DNA from: Candidatus Thiodiazotropha sp. | Lineage (GTDB): Bacteria; Pseudomonadota; Gammaproteobacteria; Chromatiales; Chromatiaceae | Direction: 5' to 3' | Length of the DNA: 64,000 nt | Assembly: GCA_040507035.1 (NCBI GenBank) | Contig: JBEVVR010000034.1 | Span: 28,589-92,588 of the forward strand | In this document: positions 1-53,315 of the stretch, piece after piece | Layout of the letters: each line of letters opens with the position of its first letter | How positions within the stretch are numbered: position 1 is the stretch's first letter | The notes under the pieces: model-generated | Seen by the model: the letters and a program-made list of their open reading frames with translations, nothing else | Database searches by the model: none | What the model was told of the DNA's origin: nothing | Translations under genes and position numbers: made by a program

Positions 1-786
1 ATCATGCTGGGTCGCAGCTACATGGCGATGAACGACCAGGCGGCGGCGATCGACGCCTTCGAACGCGCCATGGAGATCAGTGATCAGAATGCGAGCCTAC
101 TGCTGGCTTATGCCGAAGCCATCGCTTCAGGTAACGGAAATGACTTCACCGGACGTGCTGCCGGGATGGTGGAAAAGGCGTTGCTGCTGGAACCCAACAA
201 TCCCAATGTTCTCTGGATCTCAGGCATAGTCGCCTATCAGCGCAACAACTACCAGGCTGCGGTAGACCACTGGTCACTGCTGCGAGGAATGTTGAAACCA
301 CAGAGCGCAGAACTCGAATCGGTGAACAGTGCCCTTGACGACGCCCGTGCCAAGTTGGGACTGCCCCCTGAGGAGCCTGAACTACCCACTATTGCACAAC
401 CCAAAGCACCTGTGACCGACAAGGTGGCTGATGCTCAGGGCAAGTCGCTGCAAGTCGAAATCACACTCTCGCCTGAAATGGAGAAAAAGACAAAACCGGA
501 CGATCTGCTGTTTATCTATGCCAAGGCAGTGAGCGGCCCACCCATGCCGCTGGCAGCCGTGCGCAAGCGGGTCAGCGATCTCCCCCTCTCCATCAGTCTG
601 GATGACAGCATGGCGATGATGCCGCAGATGAGACTCTCTCAATTCTCCCAGGTTTCGGTAGGCGCACGCATATCCCTCTCGGGAAGCCCCAGCGCACAGA
701 GCGGTGACCTCGAGGGAGAGATCAGCGCTGTGAGCCCGGGACAGACGGAAATCGTTAAGGTTGTGATCGATTCGGTACACCCCTGA
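1..786 (+). CDS. ccmI: Cytochrome c biogenesis TPR protein CcmI/CycH (5' truncated by window edge)
   Basis: Frame open from base 1. TPR-like helices plus the typical C-terminal domain 'LFIYAKAVSGPPMPLAAVR...LDDSMAMMPQMRLS...VGARISLSG'. Confidence 0.85.
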   Translation: MMLGRSYMAMNDQAAAIDAFERAMEISDQNASLLLAYAEAIASGNGNDFTGRAAGMVEKALLLEPNNPNVLWISGIVAYQRNNYQAAVDHWSLLRGMLKPQSAELESVNSALDDARAKLGLPPEEPELPTIAQPKAPVTDKVADAQGKSLQVEITLSPEMEKKTKPDDLLFIYAKAVSGPPMPLAAVRKRVSDLPLSISLDDSMAMMPQMRLSQFSQVSVGARISLSGSPSAQSGDLEGEISAVSPGQTEIVKVVIDSVHP

Positions 787-1028
787 ACGACGCCAGCGGT
801 CCATAGGCCATATCGACATGCCAACCTTAAGCCGACAAGCCTGGTGAAGCGGTAGCTCCCTCTTGTAAATGGCTAGATGCCAGTTTTTTTACATTTTCCT
901 GTTCAAGCTCAACATCTCCTGTAATCTGCTTGATATACTGGGCTAAGCAAAAGAAAACAAATACCCTTTTGCCGGTATCTTCCAACGATTTCTTGGTAGA
1001 CGCGGGCATTCCGCTGATAGGAGTCACT

Positions 1029-3065
1029 ATGGCCAGTTATTCAACCCACGACATTCGCAATATTGCCCTCGTAGGGCATGCTGGAGCTGGCAAGACCAGT
1101 CTGATCGAATCCCTGCTGCACCGCAGCGGCATGATTCACAGCACTGGCACTGTCGAGAGAGGCGATACCGTCTGTGATTATGACGACATGGAAAAAGAAC
1201 AGCAGCACTCCCTTGACATCGCAATCGCTCATCTCAGCCATGAGGGCAAGCAGGTCAATATCATCGATACACCGGGATATGGCGATTTTCTTGGTCGTGG
1301 AATAAGCATACTACCCGCTGTCGAGACAGCTGCGGTGGTGGTCAATGCCGCCACAGGCATAGAGCCCGTTACTATCCGCATGATGGAGGCCGCCAAGCGA
1401 AGAAACCTGTGCCGTTTTATCATCGTAAACAAGATCGATGCCGAGGGGGTCGATTACGAAGCACTGTTGAATACCCTGCAGGAGAGTTTCGGCAAGGAGT
1501 GCCTGCCTATCAATCTACCCACTGAGAATGGACAGAAGGTCATTGACTGTTTCTTTCAGCCCGGTGGCGACCCAACCGACTTTTCATCGGTTTCCCAGGC
1601 CCACGACAATATGGTCGATCAGGTGGTCGAAGTTGATGAGGAGCTGATGGAGCTCTACCTGGAGCAAGGTGAAGCCTTGGAGCCGGAACAGCTCCACGAC
1701 CCCTTCGAGAAGGCACTGCGTGAAGGCCATCTGATTCCTGTCTGTTTTGCCTCGGTTGAAAACGGTGCCGGCATCGACGAGCTGTTGACCTTGTTTGCCC
1801 GCCTGATGCCCGATCCTACCGAGGGTAATCCACCACCCTTCATGAAAGGTGAAGGCGCTGACATGCAACCGGTCGAGGTCTCACCAGACCCGGAAAAACA
1901 TGTCATCGGCCATGTCTTTAAAGTCCTCAACGACCCCTACCGGGGCAAGCTGGGTATCTTTCGTGTACACCAGGGAACCCTGGAAACCAATGCACAACTC
2001 TACATTGGTGATGCGCGCAAGCCGTTCAAGGTGAACCACCTGCTGAGGCTTCAGGGCAAGGAGCAGGATGAGATGAGTCAGGCGGTACCCGGCGACATCT
2101 GCGCCGTGGCAAGGATTGAAGATATCCATTTCGATGCCGTGCTGCATGATTCCCACGACGAGGACCACCACCACCTGCGTTCCATCGAATGTCCTGTTCC
2201 CCTGTTCGGGCTTGCGATCACTACCACCAAGCGGGGCGACGAACAGAAACTGAGCGATGCCTTGCACAAGCTTGAAGATGAAGATCCCTGCTTCCATGTC
2301 GAGCACAATGTCAGCCTCAATGAGACGGTGATGCGCGGTCTTGGTGAAATGCACCTGGAGGTCTTACTGCAACAGATAAAGAAGAAATATGGCGTCGAGG
2401 TGGAGACCCATCCGCCAAGCATCGCCTATCGTGAAACCATCACGCGCAAGGCCGAGGCAAGCTATCGTCATAAAAAACAGACCGGTGGTGCCGGTCAGTT
2501 CGGTGAGGTACATCTTCGTATCGAACCATTGACTCGCGGAGATGGCTTTGAGTTTGTCAACAAGATCGTCGGCGGTGCGATTCCGGGACAGTTCATTCCC
2601 GCTGTTGAAAAGGGGGTAAAGCAAGCCATGGAGGAAGGCGCAATCGGCGGCTTTGCGATGCAGGATGTCCGCGTGGTCATCTATGATGGCAAATACCACG
2701 CTGTCGACTCCAAGGAGATCGCCTTTGTCACTGCCGGTAAGAAGGCATTTCTCGAGGCAGTGGATAAGGCTGGCCCGGTGATACTGGAACCGATCGTGAA
2801 TATCGCCATTACCACACCGGACAATTTCATGGGCGACTTGACCGGTGATCTTGCAGGAAGACGAGGACAGATCAGCGGTACTGAATCGGGACACAACAAC
2901 ATGCTGGTCATCAAGGGCCAGGCACCGCTTGCGGAACTGGAGGGTTACGCCACCCAGCTCAAGGCGATGACCGGTGGCGAAGGCAACTACACAATCGAGT
3001 TCAGTCACTACGAAGCGGTACCCGCCAATGTTCAACAAAAACTTAAATCGGCTAGCCGGGAGTGA
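1029..3065 (+). CDS. fusA2: Elongation factor G paralog (EF-G II type)
   Basis: GHAGAGKTSL P-loop, DTPGY, NKID, domain III GLGEMHL, domain IV KKQTGGAGQFG and DGKYHAVDS. Start placed at ATG 1029 behind an ATAGGAG RBS. Confidence 0.9.
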   Translation: MASYSTHDIRNIALVGHAGAGKTSLIESLLHRSGMIHSTGTVERGDTVCDYDDMEKEQQHSLDIAIAHLSHEGKQVNIIDTPGYGDFLGRGISILPAVETAAVVVNAATGIEPVTIRMMEAAKRRNLCRFIIVNKIDAEGVDYEALLNTLQESFGKECLPINLPTENGQKVIDCFFQPGGDPTDFSSVSQAHDNMVDQVVEVDEELMELYLEQGEALEPEQLHDPFEKALREGHLIPVCFASVENGAGIDELLTLFARLMPDPTEGNPPPFMKGEGADMQPVEVSPDPEKHVIGHVFKVLNDPYRGKLGIFRVHQGTLETNAQLYIGDARKPFKVNHLLRLQGKEQDEMSQAVPGDICAVARIEDIHFDAVLHDSHDEDHHHLRSIECPVPLFGLAITTTKRGDEQKLSDALHKLEDEDPCFHVEHNVSLNETVMRGLGEMHLEVLLQQIKKKYGVEVETHPPSIAYRETITRKAEASYRHKKQTGGAGQFGEVHLRIEPLTRGDGFEFVNKIVGGAIPGQFIPAVEKGVKQAMEEGAIGGFAMQDVRVVIYDGKYHAVDSKEIAFVTAGKKAFLEAVDKAGPVILEPIVNIAITTPDNFMGDLTGDLAGRRGQISGTESGHNNMLVIKGQAPLAELEGYATQLKAMTGGEGNYTIEFSHYEAVPANVQQKLKSASRE

Positions 3066-3187: not shown

Positions 3188-3359
3188 GTTTTCGTTTCTT
3201 TAAAAAACAAGTAAAAAGCGAAAGACAAAAATTAAAAAAACCCAATTACAGACGCACTGAAATGAATTCAGCCAGTTGAAATAAATAACCAAAAAACAAC
3301 ACTTTTACAGCTTTTAGCAAAACAAAGTATTTTGCAAAATAATGAATCACTGGAGATGC

Positions 3360-3373
3360 TTGATCTAGATCAA
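3360..3373. promoter_or_regulatory. FNR/Anr/Dnr-family binding site
   Basis: TTGAT-CTAG-ATCAA is an exact match to the TTGAT-N4-ATCAA consensus, about 280 bp upstream of the octaheme gene. Confidence 0.8.
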
Positions 3374-3652
3374 GGCGCTCACTCTCCCGAATCGTTTTTA
3401 TAGGCTCGTGTAAGCATAAAAAGAACAGGGTTTTACTGACTAGACAACATAAGTAAAGCCATGCAGTCCCCATGGCCATAATAATCTGGGGTTGGTAAAA
3501 AAGTCATAACCATCCTTTCTTCATAATTCGCTTGCTCACTCACTTTGGGAGGCTCATCCGTTGCGCTTGTGCATCATTATTTCAACTTCGTTTAAATTGC
3601 ATCTGCCGTTGATGAATCTCTTCCTTACTCTCAACCCATTAAGGAGGGAGCT

Positions 3653-5146
3653 ATGAAACGCTTCGGTAATGGTCGATTCGGTGCAATATTGGGGAGTGTT
3701 GCAGCGGGAATCACGCTGCTGCTGCAAATCTCGATAGCGGACGCTGCAAGACCTTCTGGTGAGATTGGTAAAGATTGGGGCAACCCGAAAGGCCACGAGT
3801 GTGTCGAGTGTCACTGGATGGAGGATCCGGGTTTGACCATGGAGTGGAACAACAGCCAGCATGGACAGAGTGGCGTCAACTGCCTCGACTGTCACGAGGC
3901 CAAAGCGGAAGACGTGGATGGATTTGAACATGAGGGTTCCCGTATCTCCATTATCGTGACGCCCAAGGACTGCTCCAAGTGTCACTCCACTGAATTCGAA
4001 GAGATGGATGGTTCCCACCACTCCAAAGGCGGCCAGATCCTTGCCTCCCTCGACAATCTGCTCGGTGAAGTGGTTGGTGGACCTGCCGCTGTCAATGCCG
4101 GTTGCCGTCAATGTCACGGTTCCAAGGTCGAAATCGGCGATGACGGCAAACCGCTGCCGACCACCTGGCCCAACACCGGTATCGGCCGCCTCAATCCTGA
4201 CGGTTCCGCCGGTTCCTGTACCGCCTGTCACGGTCGCCATCGTTTCTCCAAGGCCCAGGCCCGTACACCTGACACCTGCGGCAAGTGCCACGTCGGCCCC
4301 GACCATCCGCAGATTGAGGTCTACAACGAGTCGAAACACGGCATCATCTACCGCGCCAAGGTCGATGAGATGAACATGGAGTCGGACAAGTGGGTCGCCG
4401 GTGTTGACTACTCTGCAGCTCCCACCTGCGCCACCTGCCACATGAGTGCCGGCGGTAAAGAGGGCAAGACCCATAACGTGGGCGACCGCATCTCCTGGAC
4501 CCTGCGTCCGCCGATCTCTCAGAAGATCAACCTGGTGCGTCTGGAAAACGGTCAGGAATTCGACGTCAAAGAGGGTAAGGAGATACCCAAGGTCGGCGAC
4601 GAGGCGAAAGGCTCTACTGTCATCGAAGTGGTTACCTGGAAAGAGCGCCGCAAAAAGATGCAGGAAGTCTGTAAGGCCTGCCACAGCGACAGTGTCATCA
4701 ACGGTCACTACAACCAGTTCGACAACGTGGTGGAGCTCTACAACGAGAAATTCGCCAAACCGATCGCTGCTGTGATGGGTGAGTTGAAAAAGAACGGCTA
4801 TATCACCAAGGCCCCGTTTGACGACAAGATCGAGTGGACCTGGTGGGAGATCTGGCATCACGAGGGTCGTCGTGCCCGTCACGGCGCCTCCATGAGTGGT
4901 CCCGACTATACCTGGTGGCATGGCATCTATGATGTGGCCAAACATACCTACATGAAGTGGATACCTGAGCTGAAGGATGTCTCAATGAAGAAAGACGGCA
5001 ACACTAAGTTCGCCGACGCCATGTTGGATAAGTACTTCAAGCCGATCGACGGTCATACCTGGTACTTCGAAGGCATGAGCAAAGAGGCCATCGACAAGGT
5101 TCGCAAAGGGTTCGAAGAGCGCTACGGTAAAGGTGCGCTTAAGTAG
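3653..5146 (+). CDS. Octaheme c-type cytochrome, hydroxylamine oxidoreductase (HAO) family
   Basis: Signal peptide and eight CxxCH motifs (CVECH, CLDCH, CSKCH, CRQCH, CTACH, CGKCH, CATCH, CKACH). HAO-type segments 'CHGRHRFS', 'GPDHPQIEVYNESKHG' and 'HHEGRRARHG...GPDYTWWHG'. Confidence 0.85.
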   Translation: MKRFGNGRFGAILGSVAAGITLLLQISIADAARPSGEIGKDWGNPKGHECVECHWMEDPGLTMEWNNSQHGQSGVNCLDCHEAKAEDVDGFEHEGSRISIIVTPKDCSKCHSTEFEEMDGSHHSKGGQILASLDNLLGEVVGGPAAVNAGCRQCHGSKVEIGDDGKPLPTTWPNTGIGRLNPDGSAGSCTACHGRHRFSKAQARTPDTCGKCHVGPDHPQIEVYNESKHGIIYRAKVDEMNMESDKWVAGVDYSAAPTCATCHMSAGGKEGKTHNVGDRISWTLRPPISQKINLVRLENGQEFDVKEGKEIPKVGDEAKGSTVIEVVTWKERRKKMQEVCKACHSDSVINGHYNQFDNVVELYNEKFAKPIAAVMGELKKNGYITKAPFDDKIEWTWWEIWHHEGRRARHGASMSGPDYTWWHGIYDVAKHTYMKWIPELKDVSMKKDGNTKFADAMLDKYFKPIDGHTWYFEGMSKEAIDKVRKGFEERYGKGALK

Positions 5147-5164
5147 TTCCCTTAACGCCATCTA

Positions 5165-5191
5165 CCCCTTCGGGCTTGCATGCCTGAGGGG
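5165..5191 (+). other. Intercistronic stem-loop after the octaheme gene
   Basis: cccct-t-cgggc/ttgcat/gcctg-agggg hairpin without a clear U-tract. Confidence 0.5.
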
Positions 5192-5224
5192 GTCTTGTTA
5201 CATCTCCAGTAGTCGAGGTCATTC

Positions 5225-5671
5225 ATGGAGAGACAATTCATCTATCTGCTGACGATCTCACTCTATCTGAGTGGAGTCACGTCGCTAATGGCACAAGAGC
5301 CTGTGGAGGATTTACTTGCTCAAGCACAGCGCTTATCCGAATCGGGCAAGCTGTCTGAAGCACACGCTATACTGGTTAAGGCGGTCGAGACAGATCCGCA
5401 GTCATCATCCGCCCATACCCGGTTGGGGGGTGTGCAACTGCTGCAACGCAACTATCAGTCCGGCATCAAGCATTTTCAACAGGCGATCATGTTGGATGGC
5501 ACAAATGCGGATGCCTTCGTCGGCCTGGCTGTTGCCTACCTGCATCTAGGTCGTTATGCCCTGGCTAGAGAGGCATTCAAAGAGGCGCAGCAAAAGGGCC
5601 CGTCAAAACAGCAGGATATCGATAAAATACTGGCCTGGCTCGATCAAAGATCTGCAAAAGACGGACACTGA
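5225..5671 (+). CDS. Periplasmic tetratricopeptide-repeat protein
   Basis: Signal peptide followed by about three TPR units (e.g. 'AHTRLGGVQLLQRNYQSGIKHFQQAIMLD', 'AFVGLAVAYLHLGRYALAREAF'). Confidence 0.8.
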   Translation: MERQFIYLLTISLYLSGVTSLMAQEPVEDLLAQAQRLSESGKLSEAHAILVKAVETDPQSSSAHTRLGGVQLLQRNYQSGIKHFQQAIMLDGTNADAFVGLAVAYLHLGRYALAREAFKEAQQKGPSKQQDIDKILAWLDQRSAKDGH

Positions 5672-5697
5672 GAAGCGGTCCACCCGAGGAGGTATTG

Positions 5698-6366
5698 ATG
5701 AAAACAAACAGAAAACTGGTAAAGGCAGTGATTGCCAGCCTGTTGTTTGGCTGGCTGGTGTCGAGCTGCACCACGACCGACAGTGCGATGCAAAAAGAGG
5801 CCGCCGTAACTGGCGCAAAGGCTGATGAAAAGATGGCCCCCGCAAAGCCACAAGGCGTCAGATCCCCCAGCATGTTGGCCAACACCTGCGCCGGCTGCCA
5901 TGGCACCGACGGCGCCAGTGCGGGGGATGCCATGCCGATCATCGGTGGCCTGGAGAAGGAGTATCTGCAGATCGTATTGGCCGAGTACAAGAGCGGCGAA
6001 CGAGATTCTACCATCATGGGCCGTATCGCCAGGGGCTACTCCGATAACGAACTGAAAGCGATTGCCTCCTATTTTGCGGACAAGCCATGGATCTCAAGCC
6101 CGGCCAAAGCTGATAAAAAGCTGGCGGCGATAGGCAAAAAGATTCATGAAAAGCGGTGTAAAACGTGTCATGAAGATGGTGGCAGGGTACAGGAGGATGA
6201 TGCTCCCCGATTGGCTGGACAATGGCCAGATTTCACCCTGATCTACCTCAAGGATTGCCACAAAAAGGGCCGGCGTTGTCAGCCGAGAAAAATGGGCAAA
6301 CGAGTCGCTGAACTCTCGCAAAAAGAGTTGCAAGCCATGGCTCACTACTATCTGAGCGAGAAATGA
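5698..6366 (+). CDS. fccA: Diheme cytochrome c subunit of flavocytochrome c sulfide dehydrogenase, predicted lipoprotein
   Basis: CAGCH and CKTCH heme motifs, 'STIMGRIARGYSD', position directly upstream of fccB, lipobox-like LVSS-C. ATG 5698 follows a GAGGAG RBS. Confidence 0.8.
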   Translation: MKTNRKLVKAVIASLLFGWLVSSCTTTDSAMQKEAAVTGAKADEKMAPAKPQGVRSPSMLANTCAGCHGTDGASAGDAMPIIGGLEKEYLQIVLAEYKSGERDSTIMGRIARGYSDNELKAIASYFADKPWISSPAKADKKLAAIGKKIHEKRCKTCHEDGGRVQEDDAPRLAGQWPDFTLIYLKDCHKKGRRCQPRKMGKRVAELSQKELQAMAHYYLSEK

Positions 6367-6376
6367 GGGGAGCACG

Positions 6377-7663
6377 ATGGCTAAACTGACACGTAGAAAC
6401 TTTATCAAGACTACAGGCGCTTGTGCGGCGCTTGGTACCGCAGCAGCTATCAGCCCTGCTGTATTAGCTAAAAGCGCCAAAGGCCGTGTAATTGTTATCG
6501 GCGGTGGTTATGGTGGTTCTATCGCGGCCAAGTATATAAAAAAGGCCGATCCCTCGATCGATGTCACCTTGATTGAGAAAAACACCCAGTATGTCTCCTG
6601 CCCGCTGAGTAATGAGGTGTTGGGTGGGGAGCGTGACATCGGCAGCGTCACTTTCAACTATAAGGCAATGAGCCAGAACCACAGTATCCAGGTGGTACAC
6701 GATGAAGTGGTTGAGATCGATGCCACCAACCATAAGGTAAAGGTTGCAGGTGGCAATCAGTACCAGTACGACAAACTGGTCGTCTCACCGGGGATCGACT
6801 TCCGTTTTGAGATGATCGAAGGCCATAGTGCCGCGCTGGCCGAGAAGATTCCCCATGCCTGGAAGGCGGGACCTCAAACCAACCTCCTGCGTAAACAATT
6901 GATGGCGATGAAGGATGGCGGTGTCTGTTATATCGCAGCACCCCCCAATCCCTTCCGCTGCCCACCCGGTCCCTATGAGCGTGCCGCGCAGATAGCCCAC
7001 TACTTCAAGCAGCAGAAACCCAAATCGAAAGTCATCATTCTGGATGCCAAGGACAAGTTTTCCAAGCAGGGCCTGTTCATGCAGGGTTACAAGAAGTTCT
7101 ATGGCGATACCATCGAATGGGTCAGCGGTGCCAACGGTGGCATCATCGAAGGGATCGATGCAGACAACATGACCCTGGTGGGCCAGGTAGACGAGTACAA
7201 AGGCGATGTCCTCAACGTCATCCCCGCGCAAAAGGCAGGCAAGATAGCGCAGATGGCGGGACTGACCGACACTTCTGGCTGGTGCCCGGTCAACCAGGGA
7301 ACTTTCGAATCCAACATACATAAGGACATCTATGTCATCGGTGATGCCAGTATCGCCGGCAAGATGCCAAAATCGGGTTATGCCGCTAATTCACAGGGCA
7401 AGGTCTGTGCTGCTGCAATTGTCGCGACACTTAATGGTGAACCGCCGGGTGAGCCTTCCTACGTGAACACCTGCTACAGCATCATCTCACCCGAATGGGG
7501 TATCTCGGTGGCTGCAGTCTATCAGCTGGTCGAGGGTGAGATTGTGGGGGTTAAGGGCGCAGGGGGTCTCTCCCCCATGGATGCATCCGCGGAATCAAGG
7601 GCAATCGAAGTGCAGTATGCGCGCAGCTGGTTCAAGAACATCACTTCAGACATGTTCACATAA
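6377..7663 (+). CDS. fccB: Flavocytochrome c sulfide dehydrogenase, flavoprotein subunit
   Basis: Tat signal TRRNFIK, GGGYGG FAD motif, YVSCPLSN, PFRCPPGPYERA, PKSGYAANSQGK, NTCYS. Confidence 0.92.
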   Translation: MAKLTRRNFIKTTGACAALGTAAAISPAVLAKSAKGRVIVIGGGYGGSIAAKYIKKADPSIDVTLIEKNTQYVSCPLSNEVLGGERDIGSVTFNYKAMSQNHSIQVVHDEVVEIDATNHKVKVAGGNQYQYDKLVVSPGIDFRFEMIEGHSAALAEKIPHAWKAGPQTNLLRKQLMAMKDGGVCYIAAPPNPFRCPPGPYERAAQIAHYFKQQKPKSKVIILDAKDKFSKQGLFMQGYKKFYGDTIEWVSGANGGIIEGIDADNMTLVGQVDEYKGDVLNVIPAQKAGKIAQMAGLTDTSGWCPVNQGTFESNIHKDIYVIGDASIAGKMPKSGYAANSQGKVCAAAIVATLNGEPPGEPSYVNTCYSIISPEWGISVAAVYQLVEGEIVGVKGAGGLSPMDASAESRAIEVQYARSWFKNITSDMFT

Positions 7664-7705
7664 TCAAAAGATTCAGGAAGAGTAGCAATTAAAACAGGCA
7701 AGTTT

Positions 7706-7730
7706 AGCGCCGTTATGCGGCGCTTTTTTT
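7706..7730 (+). terminator. Intrinsic terminator of the octaheme-fcc operon
   Basis: agcgccg-ttatg-cggcgct followed by a T run. Confidence 0.8.
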
Positions 7731-7933
7731 CCCAATATATGGGATAGATATTTTCCGGTAATAACAGGTGATCGTGACATGCTGAATGCCCCCCCTACAG
7801 GGGGGCATCACACATATCATGTATTCAAAAAACAGACCAGACTTCTATATATTTGTTATAAATCTACGCATCAACTATTCCCTCTATCCATATTTTATCT
7901 TGCTCGGGTTGCAAGTAGGTTAAATCACCCTGA

Positions 7934-13675: not shown

Positions 13676-16600
13676 TTAAGGTAGATCGGATGAGGTTTCA
13701 TCCGCTTTGTGCGAAGTCGCTGCGGCAGGCGGCAAGCGGCGCGCCTCCCAGATCAAATAGATTACGGGGACCACGATGAGGGTCATGACTGTGGTGCTGA
13801 GCATGCCGCCTACCATGGGCAAAGCAATGCGCCGCATCACATCGGAGCCAGGCCCCTCAGTGAAAAAGATGGGTAGTAGACCGGCGATGATGACAGAAAC
13901 GGTCATCAATTTCGGTCTGACGCGCAAGGCGGCGCCAGCCATAATGGTGGCAAACAGTTGCTGCCGATCCAAGGGTGGAAGTGCGCGCGCCTGCTGATCT
14001 ATATAGAGCAGCATAACCACCGCGGTCTCCACGGCGATTCCACCAAGTGCGATAAAGCCAACCGCCACGGCTACGGAAAGATTATATCCGGCGAGATAGA
14101 CCGACCATAAACCGCCCACCATTCCAAACGGGAGCGCGGTCATCACCATCACTGTGCGATCGGTACGACCAAAATGGATCATCAGCAGTACCAGAATAAT
14201 GGCGACTGCCCCTGGAATGGCTATCTTCAACCTGCTCCTTGCCTCCAGCATCTGTTCGTACTGACCGGACCAGGTAATGGCATAACCTGGTGGCAAGCTG
14301 ACTTGTTCGGCCACCTGCTTGCGGGCTGCGTCCACATAACCCCCCATATCGCGCCCGTCAATATCCACGAACACCCAGCCGGTGAGCCTGGCATCCTCTG
14401 ACTTGATCATCGGCGGGCCTTCGGCAAAGGTTATTTCCGCCAATTCGCCGAGAGGGATATGCATTCCCCCTGGGGTGGGCACAAGAACCTCCGAGAGATC
14501 CTGGACCGATTCGCGGAAGGGCCGGTCGTAACGCAGGATGATGTTATAGCGTTCCCGTCCCTGCACACTCTCCGCCACTTTCATGCCACCGAGGGCGGTC
14601 TGAATGATCGACTGAAACAGACCCAGATCGATATCCCTTCGTGCCAGCTCGTTTCGATTCGGAATTATTTCAAGATATTTCCCACCGCTGACCCGATCGG
14701 CAAATGCACTGCGGGTCCCTACCACCTCCTTGACCACGGCTTCCACATCAAGGGCGATACGTCCGATGACATCAAGATCGGCGCCGGAGATTTTTATGCC
14801 GACCGGGGTACGTATTCCGGTTGAGATCATATCCATGCGAATCTTGATGGGGTAACCCCAGCTGTTGACCAGCCCCGGTAGCTTCACCTGCTGATCCAAG
14901 CGCTTGATCAAACCATCGATATCCATATCCGGGCGCCACTGCTGCCTCGGTTTGAGACGAATCCAGCTCTCTATCATGGATATTGGCGCGGGGTCCGTGG
15001 CGGTGTCGGCCCGCCCCACCTTGCCGAATACCTGTTCCACTTCAGGCAGGGTGCGGATCAGCCGATTGGTCTGTGCCAGCACCTCCTTGGCCTTGGTGAT
15101 GGAGACCCCTGGAAGCGTGGTGGGCATATAGAGCAGCTCCCCTTCATAGAGGGCGGGCATGAATTCCGAACCAAGCCTGGATAGGGGATACCACAGACTT
15201 GCCACCCCCAGCAGCGCGACAAACAGCGTGAGCCAGCGCATGCGCATGGAGAACTGCAGGATTGGCTTGTACAACGCGACGAAAAGGCGATTTAGCGGAT
15301 TGACCTCTTCCCGGCGAATTTTGCCTCTGATCAGCCAAAGCATGAGTATCGGCACGATGGTTACCGACAGCAGTGATGCAAAGGCCATGGCATAGGTCTT
15401 TGTATAGGCCAGTGGCGAGAACAAGCGGAAGCTCTCTCCGGTAAGCGCGAACACCGGTAGAAATGAGACGGTTATGATCAACAGACTGAAGAAGAGACCG
15501 GGGCCGACCTCCTTGGCCGATTGCAGAATGGCGGCGTTGCGCGCCTTTTGGGCCACCGAATCCGGCATGTCACTGAGCTTGCGATGGGCGTTCTCCACCA
15601 TCACGATTGATGCATCCACCATCGCCCCGATCGCTATCGCGATACCACCGAGGGACATGATATTGGCTGTGATTCCCTGAGCGGACATTACCGTGAATGC
15701 ACCCAGCACACCGAGTGGAAGGGTAATGATGGCGACGAAGGCCGAGCGTGCATGTAACAGGAAGAGGATACAGACCAGGGCTACCACGATTCCCTCTTCG
15801 ATCAGCTTATGGTTTAGATAGTCAACCGCACCCCGGATCAGAGGCGCCCGATCATACACGGAGCGCAGTTCCACACCCTCGGGTAGACCGCGACGCAGGA
15901 ACTCAAGTTTTTCCTTCACTGCCTCGATCACATTCAGTGCGTTCTCCCCGGAACGCATGACCACGATACCGCCGACCACCTCGCCTTCGCCATCCAACTC
16001 CACCACTCCGCGCCTTAGTTCAGGCCCCTCCAACACCCTGGCCAGGTCCGTGAGCAATACGGGGGTGCCGTTACGTGCCCGCACCACCACCTGCTGCAGA
16101 TCATCGAGGGATGTGACATAACCCCGTGAGCGGATCATCAGTTCGGTCTCGGAGCGTTCCAATACCCGGCCTCCCACCTCCATGCTGGCGGCCTTTACCG
16201 CATCGCGCACCCTGAGCAGGGGAATGTCATAGGCGCGCAATCTGTTGGGATCGATCAACACCTGGTATTCGCGTACAAATCCACCCACGGAGGCAACCTC
16301 GGATACCCCGGGTACGGTTGCCAGTTCGAAACGCAAGAACCAGTCCTGGAGCGCACGCAGCTCGGCCAGGTCATGTTGGCCGGTCCTGTCCACCAAAGCA
16401 TATTGGTAGATCCACCCCACGCCGGTCGCATCGGGACCAAGCCGGGGTGTGGCGTTTTCGGGAAGATCCTTCTGCACCGTCGCCAATGCCTCGGCAACCC
16501 GGCTGCGCGCCCAATAGTCATCCACACCATCCTCAAAGATGGCATAGACGAAACTGGTTCCGAACATGGAGAAACCGCGTACCGCTTGCGTCTTAGGCAA

Positions 16601-16870
16601 TCCCAGCAGGGTGGTGGAGAGGGGGTAAGTCACCAGGTCCTCCACAATCTGCGGTGCCTGCCCCGGAAAGTCGGTGCGGATGATCACCTGGGTATCGGAG
16701 AGATCCGGAATTGCGTCCAAAGGTGTGCGATCGATGGCGAGCAGACCCGCCGCTGCCAGGGCCATGGTCAAGATCAACACGATCAGCTGATTGTGTACCG
16801 ACCAGCTGATCACGCGGGCAATGAAGGAGCGGGAGGGATCCTCTCCGCCAATATCCCTCGCATCATGCAT
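13676..16870 (-). CDS. cusA: Heavy-metal RND efflux permease, CusA/SilA type
   Basis: DAIPDLSDTQVI, GPDATGVGWIYQY, GIAIAIGAMVDA, YMPTTLPG, RVRPKLMT. ATG 16870 follows GGAGG. Confidence 0.93.
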   Translation of the reverse strand: MHDARDIGGEDPSRSFIARVISWSVHNQLIVLILTMALAAAGLLAIDRTPLDAIPDLSDTQVIIRTDFPGQAPQIVEDLVTYPLSTTLLGLPKTQAVRGFSMFGTSFVYAIFEDGVDDYWARSRVAEALATVQKDLPENATPRLGPDATGVGWIYQYALVDRTGQHDLAELRALQDWFLRFELATVPGVSEVASVGGFVREYQVLIDPNRLRAYDIPLLRVRDAVKAASMEVGGRVLERSETELMIRSRGYVTSLDDLQQVVVRARNGTPVLLTDLARVLEGPELRRGVVELDGEGEVVGGIVVMRSGENALNVIEAVKEKLEFLRRGLPEGVELRSVYDRAPLIRGAVDYLNHKLIEEGIVVALVCILFLLHARSAFVAIITLPLGVLGAFTVMSAQGITANIMSLGGIAIAIGAMVDASIVMVENAHRKLSDMPDSVAQKARNAAILQSAKEVGPGLFFSLLIITVSFLPVFALTGESFRLFSPLAYTKTYAMAFASLLSVTIVPILMLWLIRGKIRREEVNPLNRLFVALYKPILQFSMRMRWLTLFVALLGVASLWYPLSRLGSEFMPALYEGELLYMPTTLPGVSITKAKEVLAQTNRLIRTLPEVEQVFGKVGRADTATDPAPISMIESWIRLKPRQQWRPDMDIDGLIKRLDQQVKLPGLVNSWGYPIKIRMDMISTGIRTPVGIKISGADLDVIGRIALDVEAVVKEVVGTRSAFADRVSGGKYLEIIPNRNELARRDIDLGLFQSIIQTALGGMKVAESVQGRERYNIILRYDRPFRESVQDLSEVLVPTPGGMHIPLGELAEITFAEGPPMIKSEDARLTGWVFVDIDGRDMGGYVDAARKQVAEQVSLPPGYAITWSGQYEQMLEARSRLKIAIPGAVAIILVLLMIHFGRTDRTVMVMTALPFGMVGGLWSVYLAGYNLSVAVAVGFIALGGIAVETAVVMLLYIDQQARALPPLDRQQLFATIMAGAALRVRPKLMTVSVIIAGLLPIFFTEGPGSDVMRRIALPMVGGMLSTTVMTLIVVPVIYLIWEARRLPPAAATSHKADETSSDLP

Positions 16871-16900
16871 CGATCCTGCCTCCACTGTATCGGGCACCAC

Positions 16901-18532
16901 TCATTGCACCGCTACTCCCCCGCTCTGATCGCTATAGGGACTGTACGGCTGCTCGCCCTGCTGCACCCATAGTCGCCCGTCGCTCTCATCTTTGAACAAG
17001 CGCACCCCTTTTTCCCGGTAATAGTCACCCCTGCCATCCAACAACCATGGCTGCAACGCACTGACCAGACGGTGCAAGGCACTGCGCAAATCGCTCTCCG
17101 TGCGCGCCTGCTGCGCCTCACCGATGGCCTGTTCGGCATCCTCGAGGATCGGCCCCAGCCGGGTCTGACCGAACTTCGACCACAGCATGTTGCGAATCTC
17201 ACGGGCAGGCTGCAACTGGTCCGGCGTCACATCGTAGCCGTCGGCCAGGGCCTCGTGGAGATAGAGACCCGCATCGATCAGATGGTCAAGCATCGCCATC
17301 TGCGTCTTGCTCAGGCTTAGATCGACCAGTTCAAGTTTGAGGCGCTGAAGTTTCTGAAAAGACTCACGCAGCGCACTCTCGGAATCGATTAGAAACTGGC
17401 CGGAGACGACAATGCGTTCATCCCCCTCTATACCTTCCACAACCTCGGTGTATCCGCCACTGCTCAGACCGGTGCCTACCTTGCGTGGCTGAAAACGGCC
17501 CTCGCCGAGGGCCACCACCAGATAGGGGCCATCGGCAGCGAGCAGCAGGGCGCTGTCGGGTACCGCCAGACGACGATCCATACCCACCTCGAAGAGCACG
17601 TCGGCATAGGCGCCGGGACGTAGAAGATTGTCCCGATTATCCAGCTGCAGCCGCACCGTACCGGTACGGCTGGATCGATCCACCGTGGGATGGATGTAGT
17701 CAACACGGGTCTCGATGATCCGTCCCGGTAGGTTGGGGAGCATGACCCGAACCTGGGTAGCGTCATCGATCGCGACCAGGTCCTTCTCCGCAACCGCGGC
17801 GTTGATCCAGACCGTGTTGTAATCTTGAATCACCGCCAAGGTCTCGCCAGGGCGGACATAGCTTCCTTCCCTGACCAGCAATTCACTCAAGGTGCCCTCC
17901 GCCGAGGCGTAAAACGGCACCCGTTCCACCACCTTGCCCTTTTTACGCAGACTGGTGATGAAGGAATCGGAAACACCCAGGGCACCGAGTCTGATCGCCG
18001 CGGATTGGATACGGCTGGTGCTCTCCCTCTCCAAGGCGCTGAGATAGTCTCTTTGCGCCGCCACCAACTCGGGACTGAACAGCCGGTAGAGCAGAGTGCC
18101 GCGTTTTACCCCATCGCCGACGGCGGTTACCGCAAGGGATTCGATCCAACCGGCCACCCTGCTCGACACTTCGCTGCGCAGGCGTTCGTTCTCCGCCACA
18201 ATGCCATAGGCGCGGATACGGCGGCCGAACAGGGTGGCTTGCGGAGTGCCGTAGCGCACTCCCATGTTCTGGATAGTCTCCGGCGCTATTGTGATCAGGG
18301 CGCGATCACCGGACGCCTCATCAGCTTGCAGATCCAAGCTCGGCCCTGATTCCATCTTCACCAAATCCATGCCGCAAATCGGACAGCTTCCCATCTCATC
18401 GGCGATATAGTGCGGATGCATGGGACAGGTAAACTTTGTCTCTGCCTCCTCAGCAACCACTGTCGCCGGCATCAGCAACATGACCATCAGCAAAGTAAGC
18501 GTTGCCAGGGGTAACTGAATCGGCATCATCAA
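16901..18532 (-). CDS. cusB: RND periplasmic adaptor, CusB type, with N-terminal heavy-metal-binding domain and C-terminal extension
   Basis: 'FTCPMHP...GSCPICGMDLV' metal-binding domain, MFP core ending 'VVSGQFLIDSESAL', and about 150 extra C-terminal residues. Confidence 0.88.
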   Translation of the reverse strand: MMMPIQLPLATLTLLMVMLLMPATVVAEEAETKFTCPMHPHYIADEMGSCPICGMDLVKMESGPSLDLQADEASGDRALITIAPETIQNMGVRYGTPQATLFGRRIRAYGIVAENERLRSEVSSRVAGWIESLAVTAVGDGVKRGTLLYRLFSPELVAAQRDYLSALERESTSRIQSAAIRLGALGVSDSFITSLRKKGKVVERVPFYASAEGTLSELLVREGSYVRPGETLAVIQDYNTVWINAAVAEKDLVAIDDATQVRVMLPNLPGRIIETRVDYIHPTVDRSSRTGTVRLQLDNRDNLLRPGAYADVLFEVGMDRRLAVPDSALLLAADGPYLVVALGEGRFQPRKVGTGLSSGGYTEVVEGIEGDERIVVSGQFLIDSESALRESFQKLQRLKLELVDLSLSKTQMAMLDHLIDAGLYLHEALADGYDVTPDQLQPAREIRNMLWSKFGQTRLGPILEDAEQAIGEAQQARTESDLRSALHRLVSALQPWLLDGRGDYYREKGVRLFKDESDGRLWVQQGEQPYSPYSDQSGGVAVQ

Positions 18533-19830
18533 CCCTCCTCCATCAAAAGCGCATTGATACTGGCTGCAGCAATGGTCCGTAACGCCCGCTGTTTCGCCAC
18601 ATCCAGTGCGATCTCGGCGCGCTGAATAGCGGGGCGAATGACATCCTCCAACGAACCGTCCCCCGCTTCGTAACGTCTCCTGTTGGCTGCCTCAAGCTCG
18701 CTCAGCCGTGCGCTGCGCCTGGCAAGCGCCGCTAACAACCTGTCCGCTGTACGATAGTCCGCCACGGCCCCGTCATACTCTCCCCTGGCCTCTCGCAATC
18801 GCTGATCCCGCTCCGCCGTGGCGCTGCTAACAGCCTCCTGCGCGGCATTCAGCTTCGGTCGCTGGTTTGAAGCGGCCCAAAGCGGGACCTTGAGGGTGAA
18901 CTTGAGGGTAAGCCAGTCATCTCCATCGAAATTGGCCCCGGACTCCCGTTGCTGCCAGGCCACGCCAAAGGCGTAATCGGGGGATAACCCGGCCCTCTTC
19001 TCGTTGACCTGGGATTGCGCCACTTCCAGTTTTCGCTGCGCCTGCTGAACCGCAATCAACTCCGTCGGCTGACCCGTCCAGATCCGGGGTTCGATTGCCG
19101 GCAACGGATCATGTTCCGGAACATTGTTGAGTAGTTCTCTCAACTCCGCCTGCCAGCGCATATCTTCACCATCGAGGCCAACCACTCGCTCCTCGATACG
19201 TCCGCGTCGCACATCCAGCTCATCAAAACGCGCGTAGACCGAGCTTCCCCCTTCCATCTCGCCGCGGAGCCAAGGCTCCAGTTCACTGATAAGGTCCAGT
19301 TGTGCCGCCAATGCGGTCTTTGACTCCCTGATCCGGCGCCGCTCCGCCAACGCAGTAATCAGACGTTTTTTCAATCCGGCCAGGATCTGCAGACGTTCCA
19401 TCTGCGCCGCATCGGCCCGTGCCACATGGGTACGATGCAGGGCCTCCCGACCATCCCCATTGGGTATGGCCTGTTTAAATTCCAGGCTACGGCTGCTTGG
19501 CAGATAGCGTTCGAGATCGGTGGGATCATCGACCGGCACATTATTCAACCCAATGGTAATGCTTGGATTTGGCAGACCCAGCGCAGCATCGGAACGCAGG
19601 GTCCATTCCCTGGCGGTCGACTCGTTCTTACGAACCGCCGGGTGTTCGCGCAAACGCTCCAGCAACGCCCCGAACAGTGTCGGTTCGGCATCAGCCGCCC
19701 CGGGGCTGGTGACCGATAGGAAGATCAGCGGCCACAGCAACAGACCATGGCGAAGGTTACAGCACAGTCCAGGTCGGTCTGGAATAGAATAGGATTTACA
19801 CGACAGCTGCATCGCGTTAAGACAGCACAT
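18529..19830 (-). CDS. TolC/CusC-family outer membrane efflux protein
   Basis: OEP-like helical repeats and beta segments ('PNPSITIGLNN', 'LTLKFTLKVPLW'); first structural gene of the cus cluster. Start uncertain. Confidence 0.78.
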   Translation of the reverse strand: MCCLNAMQLSCKSYSIPDRPGLCCNLRHGLLLWPLIFLSVTSPGAADAEPTLFGALLERLREHPAVRKNESTAREWTLRSDAALGLPNPSITIGLNNVPVDDPTDLERYLPSSRSLEFKQAIPNGDGREALHRTHVARADAAQMERLQILAGLKKRLITALAERRRIRESKTALAAQLDLISELEPWLRGEMEGGSSVYARFDELDVRRGRIEERVVGLDGEDMRWQAELRELLNNVPEHDPLPAIEPRIWTGQPTELIAVQQAQRKLEVAQSQVNEKRAGLSPDYAFGVAWQQRESGANFDGDDWLTLKFTLKVPLWAASNQRPKLNAAQEAVSSATAERDQRLREARGEYDGAVADYRTADRLLAALARRSARLSELEAANRRRYEAGDGSLEDVIRPAIQRAEIALDVAKQRALRTIAAASINALLMEEG

Positions 19831-32780: not shown

Positions 32781-33346
32781 AATCTGAACCCCATAGCCAA
32801 CCGAAAAGACACGCCCGTGGTATGACACTGGTTGAAGTACTGATCGCAGCCGTCGTGATTGCAGTCGGATTACTGGGCGTGGCATCGCTACAGATAAGCG
32901 CCCTTCAGGGTGCAAGCGACGCCCAGTATCGCGCCAAGGCCTCCGATGCTATCGCATCCTTGGCGGATCGAATACGAGCAAACCTGTCAGCGGTCCCTGA
33001 CTATACGGGAGCGATTCCAGCAGAGTCATGCGCGATTGCGCCAGATGCTCCCATGACCACTATTGAGCGCTGTGCCATGAGTCCTGACGGCAGCGTCGCC
33101 GCTGTCTCTGAATGCACTGCCGCAGATATGGCAGCCTATGATCTGTGGGAGGTCAATTGCGCACTACAAGCGACAATGCCTGGCGCGGAACTTGAGATAG
33201 TGTGCCCCGCAGCCGGCTGTGAAGAGATGTCGCCATTGACGGTAACGATCTCATGGCAAATGCAGAACAGGAATCCGGACGTGGCCACCGATACCTTCAC
33301 CATCCATGAAGTTGTCGCAACAATCTTGCCTGGAGTACAACCATGA
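32777..33346 (+). CDS. pilV: Minor pilin PilV, copy 1
   Basis: G|MTLVEVLIA; 'GLLGVASLQ'; 'LADRIRAN'. Confidence 0.85.
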   Translation: MKSEPHSQPKRHARGMTLVEVLIAAVVIAVGLLGVASLQISALQGASDAQYRAKASDAIASLADRIRANLSAVPDYTGAIPAESCAIAPDAPMTTIERCAMSPDGSVAAVSECTAADMAAYDLWEVNCALQATMPGAELEIVCPAAGCEEMSPLTVTISWQMQNRNPDVATDTFTIHEVVATILPGVQP

Positions 33347-34173
33347 TCAGATCCACCCGCAAGCAGGCAGGTCTATCCATCATCTCCTTGATGATCGCCA
33401 GTGCAATCGGGGTTTTCCTGATTGGTGGTGCCGGAAAAATCTACCTCGACAGTAAAAATGCCTTCATTGCAAGATCGACCATCGCCGCAGCCGCTGAGAG
33501 CTCCCGGTTCGCCGTGCAGGATCTACGCCGAAACCTGGTCATGGCAGGCAGGGGCGTCACTGAACAGAATGACAATCCCTCTACTTATCTAGATCCAGAC
33601 AACAATATGAGGACCTTTCCCGCCGTTGATCCCGATAATACCGTCGCCGCAAGCTCCACCGGTATTATCGACATGGATAGCAACGACTCCAGTGCCGTTG
33701 CCGTTCGCTATGCGGAAGGACCGGCGCCTTGCGGTCAAGACGGCACCATTGACACTACGCACACCGTTCGATTCTACCGCAACGGCGATGCCGAGCTTAT
33801 CTGTCAATCCATAGAAACCGTAGCTGGCGCACTCAACACGGGCGGAGCCTTCGAGCGTGCCATGGCATCGGGTGTCGTCCTCATGCGTGCCCTCTACGGT
33901 GTGGATACGGATGCGGATGGCATTGCCAACCAATATCTGACCGCCACCGAAGTGGACAATGCCGATCGTTGGGTAAACGTGGTAACCATCAGGATTGGCA
34001 TAGTCACCAGCTCCGATACCGAAGAGCTTCCCTACACCTATCGCCCGGCAGCCGCAGAAGAGATGCGGGTGCTTGGTATGGAGCATATCGCAGCCGACAC
34101 ATCCCATTCGTTCAAGACCGCGAGCACCACCATCGCGTTGAGAAATCTAAACACCACAGTCCAGAGACAATGA
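33343..34173 (+). CDS. pilW: Minor pilin PilW, copy 1
   Basis: G|LSIISLMIA; 'RALYGVDTDADG...Y'; 'VVTIRIGIV'; terminal 'IALRN'. Confidence 0.82.
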   Translation: MIRSTRKQAGLSIISLMIASAIGVFLIGGAGKIYLDSKNAFIARSTIAAAAESSRFAVQDLRRNLVMAGRGVTEQNDNPSTYLDPDNNMRTFPAVDPDNTVAASSTGIIDMDSNDSSAVAVRYAEGPAPCGQDGTIDTTHTVRFYRNGDAELICQSIETVAGALNTGGAFERAMASGVVLMRALYGVDTDADGIANQYLTATEVDNADRWVNVVTIRIGIVTSSDTEELPYTYRPAAAEEMRVLGMEHIAADTSHSFKTASTTIALRNLNTTVQRQ

Positions 34174-34661
34174 TCATGACCATCAACCGCAAACAACTCG
34201 ATGTATGCAACCGACGCCATCAACAGCAGGGCGCGGCCCTGGTGATCGGCCTGATACTGCTCTCGGTGATCACCCTGTTAAGTGTGAGCGCCATGCGCAG
34301 CAGCAACCTCGAGACAAAGATCGCCGTCAATCATCAATTCAAGGAGTTGAGTTTCCAGGCGGCGGAAAATGCTTTGGCACAGCTGACCGGACCCGATCCT
34401 GAAATACTGGTACCGAACGCCATCTGTGCGGAACAACCGAATCCTGGTTACTACACATCGTCGGGAGTCACTCACCAACCCGATTTGAGCGCGGATGTCA
34501 CCATGCAGATGAGAGAGATCAGCCCACCTGGAAAGTACAAATTCTCCGGTTTTGGTCTGAATGTGGTCACCGTGTTGTACAAGGCCGACGCTCTGGGAAC
34601 GGTTGCAGACAACAACACCCAGACGACCAACCGCATGGAAGTCGCGCTGATCAGGAATTGA
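34170..34661 (+). CDS. pilX: Minor pilin PilX, copy 1
   Basis: G|AALVIGLILL; 'SFQAAENAL'; ATGA overlap with the pilW stop. Confidence 0.82.
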   Translation: MIMTINRKQLDVCNRRHQQQGAALVIGLILLSVITLLSVSAMRSSNLETKIAVNHQFKELSFQAAENALAQLTGPDPEILVPNAICAEQPNPGYYTSSGVTHQPDLSADVTMQMREISPPGKYKFSGFGLNVVTVLYKADALGTVADNNTQTTNRMEVALIRN

Positions 34662-34674
34662 GGAGTTATAGAGT

Positions 34675-39181: not shown

Positions 39182-39183
39182 TC

Positions 39184-40035: not shown

Positions 40036-40044
40036 GAAGTCATC

Positions 40045-40557: not shown

Positions 40558-40574
40558 GAAATGGATCCATCCCT

Positions 40575-51134: not shown

Positions 51135-53315
<2,181 letters not shown>

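Follow-up and report, generated by a model that had tools for sequence, protein, structure and literature searches.

The closest solved relative of the octaheme cytochrome c described here is IhOCC of Ignicoccus hospitalis (PDB 4QO5). The cytochrome is the product of the first gene of a four-gene operon (octaheme, tetratricopeptide repeat [TPR] protein, fccA, and fccB) lying behind an FNR-type box in a 64,000-nt stretch of Candidatus Thiodiazotropha sp. DNA (contig JBEVVR010000034.1), referred to below as the window. IhOCC has been placed in clade 1 (HAO/HDH/IhOCC) of the multiheme cytochromes and counted as a nitrite reductase that lacks P460, a cofactor whose origin has been inferred for the HAO/HDH branch only (PMC9250108). 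It shares its C-terminal helical domain with the window octaheme. However, IhOCC is archaeal and membrane associated, and it has Trp at the position of Y419 and Phe at the position of W422 of the window protein.

Another relative is the orange octaheme protein of Guaymas Beggiatoaceae (BOGUAY_0691), which reduces nitrite in vitro, has napAB upstream of its gene, and groups with Thiomargarita homologues (PMC6449678). Like the window octaheme, it is a periplasmic octaheme protein of a sulfide oxidizer, and an abundant one; the likeness is drawn through its Thiomargarita relatives, not its own sequence. Neither a TPR gene nor fccAB is mentioned in its neighborhood as described, and no operon structure or FNR box for it appears in the literature searched. 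Some of the Thiomargarita and other Beggiatoaceae loci examined here have napA, crp-type, or fccAB neighbors.

For the transfer of electrons between a diheme and an octaheme cytochrome, the nearest precedent comes from Kuenenia. Both epsilon-Hao and the Kuenenia HAOr Kustc0458 lack the Tyr cross-link and reduce nitrite, hydroxylamine, and NO, and Kustc0458 obtains its electrons through a bound diheme cytochrome c, Kustc0457, with which it forms a complex (PMC8042395). In the window, only cotranscription of the genes was seen. In addition, enzymes of the Kustc0458/epsilon-Hao type are much less similar to the window octaheme than IhOCC is (6h5l, E value of 1e-16). Unlike Kustc0457, the diheme protein of the window, FccA, is a subunit of sulfide dehydrogenase, and a TPR gene lies between fccA and the octaheme gene.

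The window FccAB has the same three FccB domains, twin-arginine translocation (TAT) signal, and cysteines as the canonical enzymes of Allochromatium vinosum (1FCD), Thermochromatium tepidum (3VRD), and Thioalkalivibrio paradoxus (5N1T). It differs from them in that its genes stand behind an octaheme gene under an FNR-type box and in that FccA is predicted to be a lipoprotein and carries a flexible linker. The physiological role of FccAB has remained unclarified, and knockouts oxidize sulfide normally (PMC10892978). When several sulfur oxidizers were surveyed earlier, the genes around fccAB proved not to be conserved (PMC6382920). The TPR protein resembles factors of the NrfG/CcmI type in its small size, its periplasmic location, and the position of its gene beside that of a multiheme reductase and close to ccm genes, but it scores far below the cutoffs of those families, and its octaheme has no atypical heme site. 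All parts of the operon belong to known families, and their combination appears to be new; the literature searched contained no account of such an operon, of octaheme and TPR genes as a pair, or of the conserved FNR-type box. We lean, with modest confidence, toward an operon induced by low oxygen or NO-type signals, in which a reductive octaheme and its TPR protein are joined by a sulfide-oxidizing FccAB as a source of reductant.

Operon layout, transcription, and promoter

The elements of the operon, in window positions, are as follows.

3360..3373, no strand: palindromic box of the FNR/CRP family, TTGATCTAGATCAA; sole perfect site in the window, conserved upstream of orthologues
3399..3404, + strand: -10-like hexamer TATAGG, T-A rich, at a fixed distance from the box
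3408..3652, + strand: transcribed 5' leader of ~245 nt, with RNA contig cover and conserved blocks
3653..5146, + strand: octaheme cytochrome c of the IhOCC/HAO clade, 497 aa, with PF13447, eight CxxCH motifs, and a Sec signal peptide
5164..5193, + strand: GC-rich 12-bp hairpin past the octaheme stop codon, folding at -30 kcal/mol (z, -2.4)
5225..5671, + strand: small, predicted periplasmic TPR protein, 148 aa, ~3 TPR units, with matches to TPR Pfam families and a signal peptide
5698..6366, + strand: FccA, diheme cytochrome c subunit of sulfide dehydrogenase, with two cytochrome c domains and a lipobox
6377..7663, + strand: FccB, flavoprotein subunit of sulfide dehydrogenase, predicted to be exported by TAT, with Pyr_redox_2, FCSD_central, and FCSD-flav_bind domains
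7706..7731, + strand: intrinsic terminator, stem 7706-7724 (8 pairs) plus T-run, from a terminator scan and RNA contig ends

The first-pass annotation of this DNA, made from the sequence alone, had listed a perfect TTGAT-N4-ATCAA site, four co-oriented genes, the gaps between them, and a terminator. All were found again where it had placed them: the four genes lie on the plus strand with gaps of 78, 26, and 10 nt, and each is preceded by a Shine-Dalgarno-like sequence. The octaheme shares 94-95% identity with annotated proteins of Candidatus Thiodiazotropha taylori and endoloripes, and FccB shares 89% with proteins of Ca. T. endolucinida and a Ctena orbiculata symbiont. By these identities, the carrier of the operon is a sulfur-oxidizing symbiont of lucinid clams.

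Transcription was followed in gill metatranscriptomes of a related symbiont with ~87-92% DNA identity, and runs from related species were used at 80-95% likeness, since a run search with the TPR-fccAB half listed none from the exact organism. In run X3, a single 4144-nt RNA contig (depth, 106) covered window positions 3459-7591, that is, leader and all four genes. In run X1, a 1854-nt contig (depth, 545) covering 3408-5255 overlapped by 30 nt with a 2372-nt contig (depth, 243) covering 5226-7593, and the depth dropped from 243 to 57 at ~7702. The 2892-nt contig of run X2 (4837-7702) passed straight into Illumina adapter, and the same adapter junction at 7702 was present in run X4; RNA molecules thus end at the foot of the terminator (~7702). 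No run had RNA contig cover of 3241-3407. In the sister locus of Ca. T. taylori (L036), one contig of run X5 joined the octaheme and TPR genes (depth, 385) and another joined TPR, fccA, and fccB (depth, 292), with a depth of 1300-2700 in the octaheme body. Because RNA contigs span all four genes or bridge their junctions, octaheme, TPR, fccA, and fccB form one transcription unit, as the first-pass annotation had supposed.

The operon genes were found at contig depths of ~100-2700 in clam-gill and sediment metatranscriptomes. Across runs, the octaheme had 1-5 times the contig depth of the downstream genes, contig depth being a poor measure of expression: at the sister locus it was 41-84 versus 8-12 in run X11 and about equal in run X13. 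Contig starts at 5859-5865 of the sister locus (window 3521-3527) were considered as processing sites, but they had no match in other runs and are taken to be assembly breaks. Separately, RNA contigs of depth 17-67 in runs X1-X3 (window 4837-7122) diverged from the main contig within the octaheme gene and matched fccA/fccB in patches only, at ~80%. They come either from another symbiont strain that lives alongside the first and has a similar operon or from a divergent paralogue of fccAB.

The octaheme family is large (more than 8000 matches listed and at least 577 loci among species representatives), and the locus was compared with a main set of 57 gamma- and betaproteobacterial (plus Magnetococcales) octaheme loci, including Rhodoferax, Rhodocyclaceae, and Sulfuritalea. 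A hairpin occurs at the same position after the octaheme gene in nearly all loci, despite unrelated sequence, and many have a T-run and so form a clear intrinsic terminator. The drop in depth coincided with the octaheme-TPR junction in runs X1 and X11 only. The conserved hairpin and the higher octaheme contig depth together suggest that the element attenuates transcription or stabilizes RNA, thereby raising the octaheme dose. In Ca. Thiomargarita nelsonii (L038, 7452-7663), the octaheme-TPR spacer is 210 nt long, folds at -100 kcal/mol, and holds two copies and one inverted copy of the palindromic unit GGGTGCGTAGGACGCACCCTACAAAATATCGTG.

No perfect TTGAT-N4-ATCAA site other than the box TTGATCTAGATCAA occurs in the 64 kb. 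Taken alone, this is only weakly significant, with 0.13 sites expected and at least one in 13 of 100 shuffles. Its significance is strong because it is conserved upstream of orthologous octaheme genes. A perfect box was located 50-450 bp upstream of the octaheme match in 18 of the 57 loci, and the density of 18 sites per 22 kb upstream of octaheme genes, against 4 per 582 kb elsewhere, amounts to a 117-fold enrichment. When one mismatch was allowed, the box was present in 35 of 56 loci, at a 38-fold density. When six related leaders were aligned, the box and the GG after it proved invariant, and a -10-like element stood at a fixed distance.

In class II promoters of the FNR/CRP type, the regulator site is centered ~41.5 bp upstream of the transcription start and is combined with a -10 element. 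The window box lies 280 nt upstream of the octaheme ATG, and the longest RNA contig starts at 3408, 41.5 bp from the box center (3366.5), although contig ends are not mapped 5' ends. Transcription therefore probably starts at ~3408-3411, in the geometry of a class II FNR-type promoter. The regulatory role first given to the box on its sequence is thus strengthened by its conservation with the octaheme gene and by RNA coverage that begins at the class II position. Service to a minus-strand open reading frame (ORF) of 77 aa (3246-3479) was considered for the box and rejected, since the box accompanies the octaheme gene whatever lies upstream; the genes 5' of the pair vary (EF-G-like, ccmA, crp-type, or fccA).

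The box is probably recognized by a regulator of the FNR/ANR or the Dnr/NnrR type. A gene of the Crp/Fnr family neighbors the octaheme in 14 loci, and most of its products lack the FNR cysteine cluster and are Dnr/NnrR/FtrB-like. The regulator encoded near one Thiodiazotropha locus (L003) has the FNR pattern C15-x2-C18-x5-C24...C117, and Dnr/NnrR/FtrB-like genes adjoin the octaheme in 13 other loci. Two FNR-type boxes 38-40 bp apart (~four helical turns) were seen in L004, L015, L017, L023, L025, L028, and L037; these double-box loci are Chromatiaceae-like, and the Thiodiazotropha loci have one box. Within the leader, blocks are kept across six Thiodiazotropha-like loci, namely, GTAAGC near the start and CCATG..GTCCCC-N16-GGGGTTGG. 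An Rfam scan of leader and intergenic region gave only subthreshold chance matches, and the consensus fold of the leader had almost no covariation; no RNA element is therefore claimed for it.

The octaheme cytochrome, its TPR partner, and FccAB

The octaheme starts with a hydrophobic signal ending in ADA-A, and its eight CxxCH motifs (C50, C77, C107, C151, C189, C209, C259, and C340) are invariant in 58 sequences. It matches PF13447 with 90.4 bits (cutoff, 21.9). In a search of the PDB, the family profile found 4qo5 (IhOCC) with an E value of 1e-57 and the HAO/HDH structures 6t5e, 4n4j, 1fgj, and 6hif with 1e-17 to 1e-21. The C-terminal helical domain aligned with IhOCC alone and not with HAO. 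The segment CGKCHVGPDHP aligned with CATCHSGVDHN of 1fgj, and its D217 and H218 are invariant in the 58 sequences; we take Asp267/His268 of Nitrosomonas HAO to be the corresponding distal Asp-His pair after the sixth heme motif. By these matches, the octaheme belongs to the HAO/HDH/IhOCC clade, with the IhOCC branch nearest. An AlphaFold2 model from a 14-sequence alignment reached a mean predicted local distance difference test (pLDDT) score of 54, with the heme domain below 50, and was set aside for fold searches.

The family assignment and the link to nitrogen oxides proposed in the first-pass annotation are upheld by the similarity to IhOCC and HAO and by recurrent narX, narL, crp/fnr-type, and napA neighbors; homology and gene neighborhoods thus support an assignment to nitrogen-oxide chemistry. 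The Thiomargarita and other Beggiatoaceae octahemes are 65-78% identical to that of the window, which is therefore probably of the orange Beggiatoaceae type. Most likely it acts as a reductase of nitrite, hydroxylamine, or NO. Its residues M414 and W422 agree with the Met-8-Trp signature, which has been reported for reductive epsilon-Hao (PMC8940962), and enzymes of the HAO family without the Tyr cross-link are reductases (PMC8042395). The reductive direction is a likelihood only, because the cross-link column could not be placed in the alignment and an invariant Tyr lies nearby. In an assembly from a Ctena symbiont (L082, 3983-5770), the octaheme was called as a 366-aa product and three small fragments, between flanks identical to those of L081; the split reflects a pseudogene with a frameshift or else a fault of the assembly.

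The first-pass annotation had regarded the TPR protein as an adaptor between FccA and the octaheme, and this role was not supported. A TPR gene lies directly 3' of the octaheme gene in 45 of the 57 loci, with or without fccAB, and at least 3 of the 12 loci that lack it are contig ends. The start of the TPR gene overlaps the octaheme stop codon in L039, L051, and L054, an arrangement of translational coupling, and all TPR copies have a signal peptide. Because the pairing is so frequent, mostly without fccAB nearby, and coupling is present in three loci, the TPR protein is, judged from gene order, the dedicated partner of the octaheme and not an adaptor of FccA.

A function as an NrfG-like heme-lyase adaptor was also rejected, since the TPR protein scores 29 bits against NrfG (cutoff, 306) and 27.9 against PF23914, the TPR family of CcmI (cutoff, 42), and since all eight octaheme sites are standard CxxCH and none is CxxCK. 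The PDB matches of the window protein were generic TPR proteins only.

FccB contains PF07992, PF21706 (164 bits), and PF09242 (101 bits). Its TAT signal scores 22.6 bits against a cutoff of 22.7, and the RRNF motif is present. E values were 2e-147 to 5n1t_A and 9e-139 to 1fcd_A, and 1e-135 to 1e-147 to solved sulfide dehydrogenases overall. At the conserved cysteines, the alignment with 1fcd_A pairs yvsCplsnev with yytCylsnev, and pfrCppgpyera and ntCysi are identical; these would correspond to Cys42, Cys161, and Cys337 of A. vinosum FccB, which we take to be the cysteines of the flavin thioether and the redox-active disulfide. FccA, encoded 10 nt upstream of fccB, has two CxxCH motifs and E values of 2e-32 to 3vrd_A and 2e-31 to 1fcd_C. 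The domains, the TAT signal, and the matches to solved sulfide dehydrogenases agree with the identity first given to these genes, and the third and fourth genes are assigned on this basis to a genuine FccAB sulfide dehydrogenase.

In the window, the 5' part of fccA (5698-5870) encodes the lipobox LVSSC, and that of a complete Thiodiazotropha genome (L083, 6314-6480) encodes LAGC. An Ala/Lys/Pro-rich linker of ~25-37 residues (~37 in the window) separates the lipobox from the conserved GVRSPSMLANTCAGCH core, and in other loci FccA has a plain Sec signal peptide. These features suggest a membrane-tethered sulfide dehydrogenase in this Thiodiazotropha subclade.

Gene linkage and a proposed route of sulfide electrons

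fccAB adjoins the octaheme in 16 of the 57 loci (28%), in two arrangements. The co-directional order of the window recurs in ten loci of Thiodiazotropha and other Chromatiales-like metagenome-assembled genomes (MAGs). The divergent order, fccBA <- -> octaheme-TPR, was found in five loci, belonging to Thiocystis minor, Thiocystis violacea, two Thiocapsa, and Thiomargarita nelsonii. Four of these loci, T. nelsonii (L038) being the exception, have boxes with no more than one mismatch in the intergenic region that the two gene pairs share. In Halochromatium salexigens, fccAB is located 5.5 kb downstream. Exactly the gene arrangement of the window was also present in three other Thiodiazotropha assemblies, including a complete genome. 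In a Thiocapsa MAG (L025, 4958-5476), the divergent fccAB has shrunk to one ORF of ~170 aa, in which a first 69-aa stretch of FccA is followed by the last 81-aa stretch of FccB; it looks like a deletion remnant.

The other neighbors that recur, in Chromatiaceae and Betaproteobacteria, are narX, narL, a crp/fnr-type gene, and napA. In Thiocystis violacea DSM 208 (L018, 3446-13143), all are gathered in one cluster, fccB-fccA <- -> octaheme-TPR <- narL-narX -> crp/fnr-type -> napA. In a clade at 50% identity (Deltaproteobacteria, Nitrospirota, and others; L065, L066, L069, and L074-L080), the TPR gene is absent. The 3' genes there encode a tetraheme cytochrome, an NrfC/DsrO-like FeS protein, HEAT-repeat proteins, and a NapA-like molybdoenzyme, and sensor kinase genes lie upstream. 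No gene of the quinol-dehydrogenase type was found next to the octaheme in the gamma/beta clade loci. Because no quinol-oxidizing module adjoins it, soluble or FccA-type cytochromes are plausible donors of the octaheme.

The favored account would run as follows. A regulator of the FNR/ANR or Dnr/NnrR type would activate the class II-type promoter through the TTGAT-N4-ATCAA box, presumably in response to low oxygen and/or nitrogen oxides. The mRNA would start at ~3408, pass through the 245-nt leader and the four genes, and end at the terminator at ~7706-7731, and the hairpin after the octaheme gene may let the octaheme message exceed the rest. After export by Sec, the octaheme would reduce nitrite, hydroxylamine, or NO in the periplasm, with the TPR protein as a stabilizing subunit or as a helper in folding or assembly. 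FccAB would oxidize periplasmic sulfide and reduce c-type hemes. Coexpression would thus set a sulfide-driven periplasmic reductant beside a multielectron reductase that lacks a quinol dehydrogenase gene of its own, and sulfide electrons could reach the octaheme from FccA, either directly or through the soluble cytochrome pool. Such a transfer is our inference; the cotranscription, the linkage in two arrangements, the lack of another donor module, and the Kuenenia precedent are all compatible with it. A route of this kind would bypass quinones and so conserve no energy; detoxification, the production of ammonium, or the disposal of electrons would be its likelier uses.

Several findings weigh against this account. 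Within 6 kb, fccAB is absent from 41 of the 57 octaheme loci, and the octaheme-TPR pair also occurs in taxa that are not known as sulfur oxidizers; FccAB is thus not an obligatory donor. Many octaheme carriers are purple sulfur bacteria that are, to our knowledge, not known as nitrate respirers. The 64-kb window contains no regulator gene of the Crp/Fnr family and no other nitrogen- or sulfur-cycle gene. A fixed 1:1 complex of FccAB and octaheme is argued against by the hairpin and by the 1-5-fold difference in contig depth, and the RNA evidence as a whole carries the limits of contigs, whose ends are not mapped RNA ends and whose depth is a poor expression measure. Y419 is invariant, three residues upstream of W422, and the column of the Tyr cross-link cannot be fixed, as the C-terminal domain aligns with IhOCC only. 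In addition, hydroxylamine- and hydrazine-oxidizing activity has been reported for the native Beggiatoaceae octaheme protein (MacGregor et al. 2013, as cited in PMC4914600). As for the octaheme-TPR-fccA-fccB synteny that the first-pass annotation had named as a check, the octaheme-TPR part is widespread and the link to fccAB recurs, but most loci do without fccAB. Of the sulfide-to-nitrogen-oxide module that it had proposed, the operon, the box, and the octaheme family stand, and the adaptor role of the TPR protein is not supported.

The same absence of fccAB from most octaheme-TPR loci fits coregulation without a dedicated wire, in which FccAB feeds a general periplasmic c-type pool (cbb3 oxidase, NirS, NosZ, the octaheme, and others) and shares the operon since both products are wanted under low oxygen, with no specific contact between FccA and the octaheme. 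This is the alternative we take most seriously, although we hold it to be the less probable explanation. The octaheme contig depth, up to ~5-fold higher, the terminator-like hairpin between the genes, the lack of a conserved fccAB context in the earlier survey (PMC6382920), and the normal sulfide oxidation of FccAB knockouts (PMC10892978) all agree with it. However, an adjacency of 28% is far above chance for a gene present in one to few copies, two arrangements have been kept, and the lipobox and linker of FccA in the Thiodiazotropha subclade are an unusual specialization. A bolder reading is that FccAB is the dedicated reductant of the octaheme in lucinid symbionts and some other sulfur oxidizers. 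With the octaheme assembly kept together by the TPR protein, and with FccAB tethered to the membrane through the lipidated FccA linker in the Thiodiazotropha subclade, it would form a quinone-independent periplasmic sulfide:nitrite (or sulfide:NO/hydroxylamine) oxidoreductase; this strong form appears doubtful. If it were true, both substrates would be rendered harmless and ammonium formed within the host, and FccAB would gain its long-missing physiological role.

Two further explanations concern the substrate and direction of the octaheme itself. The linkage to fccAB and the wide occurrence of the octaheme in phototrophic sulfur bacteria could indicate a sulfur compound (sulfite, polysulfide, or tetrathionate) as the substrate and hence a pure sulfur-cycle module, and the octaheme enzymes MccA, OTR, and ONR do turn over sulfur oxyanions (PMC9250108, PMC8840924). 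We consider this very improbable, as the other recurrent neighbors are narX/narL, crp-type genes, and napA, as the pair is also present in loci of Rhodoferax, Rhodocyclaceae, Nitrospira, and Methylomirabilota that lack fccAB, and as the nearest characterized relatives (IhOCC, the Beggiatoaceae orange protein, epsilon-Hao, and Kustc0458) all act on nitrogen compounds (PMC9250108, PMC6449678, PMC8042395). It is very improbable that the octaheme is an oxidative P460-type enzyme that converts hydroxylamine to NO or nitrite and donates electrons to the cytochrome pool, with FccAB as a parallel donor. Y419, near the cross-link region, would be a candidate cross-linking residue, and the oxidase activities cited for the Beggiatoaceae protein (in PMC4914600) point the same way. 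However, the octaheme is far closer to IhOCC, which lacks P460 (PMC9250108), than to HAO/HDH; its Met and Trp fit the signature of reductive epsilon-Hao (PMC8940962); and anaerobic reduction accords with both the FNR-type promoter and the nap/narXL neighborhood.

With these loci, fccAB now has a recurrent partner, an HAO-family octaheme and TPR protein under a conserved FNR-type box. The preferred account, with a reductive octaheme and FccAB as a source of its reductant, yields the testable hypothesis that sulfide oxidation is coupled to the reduction of nitrite, NO, or hydroxylamine without the quinone pool, and it would apply to symbionts, giant sulfur bacteria, and purple sulfur bacteria. 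It bears on whether sulfidic sediments retain or lose nitrogen and on the ways in which symbionts manage simultaneous exposure to sulfide and nitrogen oxides. As a cultured strain, Thiocystis violacea DSM 208 offers an experimental entry point to the octaheme-fccAB cluster.

Surroundings of the operon

Upstream, the operon is preceded by an EF-G-like GTPase gene with its own terminator, itself preceded by ccmH/ccmI. Downstream, an oppositely oriented gene encodes an enoyl-CoA hydratase-like product. The ccmH, ccmI (CycH-type), and EF-G-like GTPase genes adjoin the operon upstream throughout Thiodiazotropha (window 4-3065; L081 and L083), and ccmA-like genes lie near the octaheme in 11 other loci. 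This proximity of ccm genes may reflect the heavy heme-attachment load of the octaheme.

The rest of the window (13676-19830, 33343-43400, 51135-53297, and 53986-62594) encodes a Cus-type resistance-nodulation-division (RND) efflux system and KatG. It also has two genes for minor pilins of the PilW type, and behind each stands a giant ORF (1027 and 941 aa) without a Pfam match; further genes encode a GH5 cellulase that includes an Ig domain and a protein of 1446 aa with PKD, CBM2, and PSD domains.

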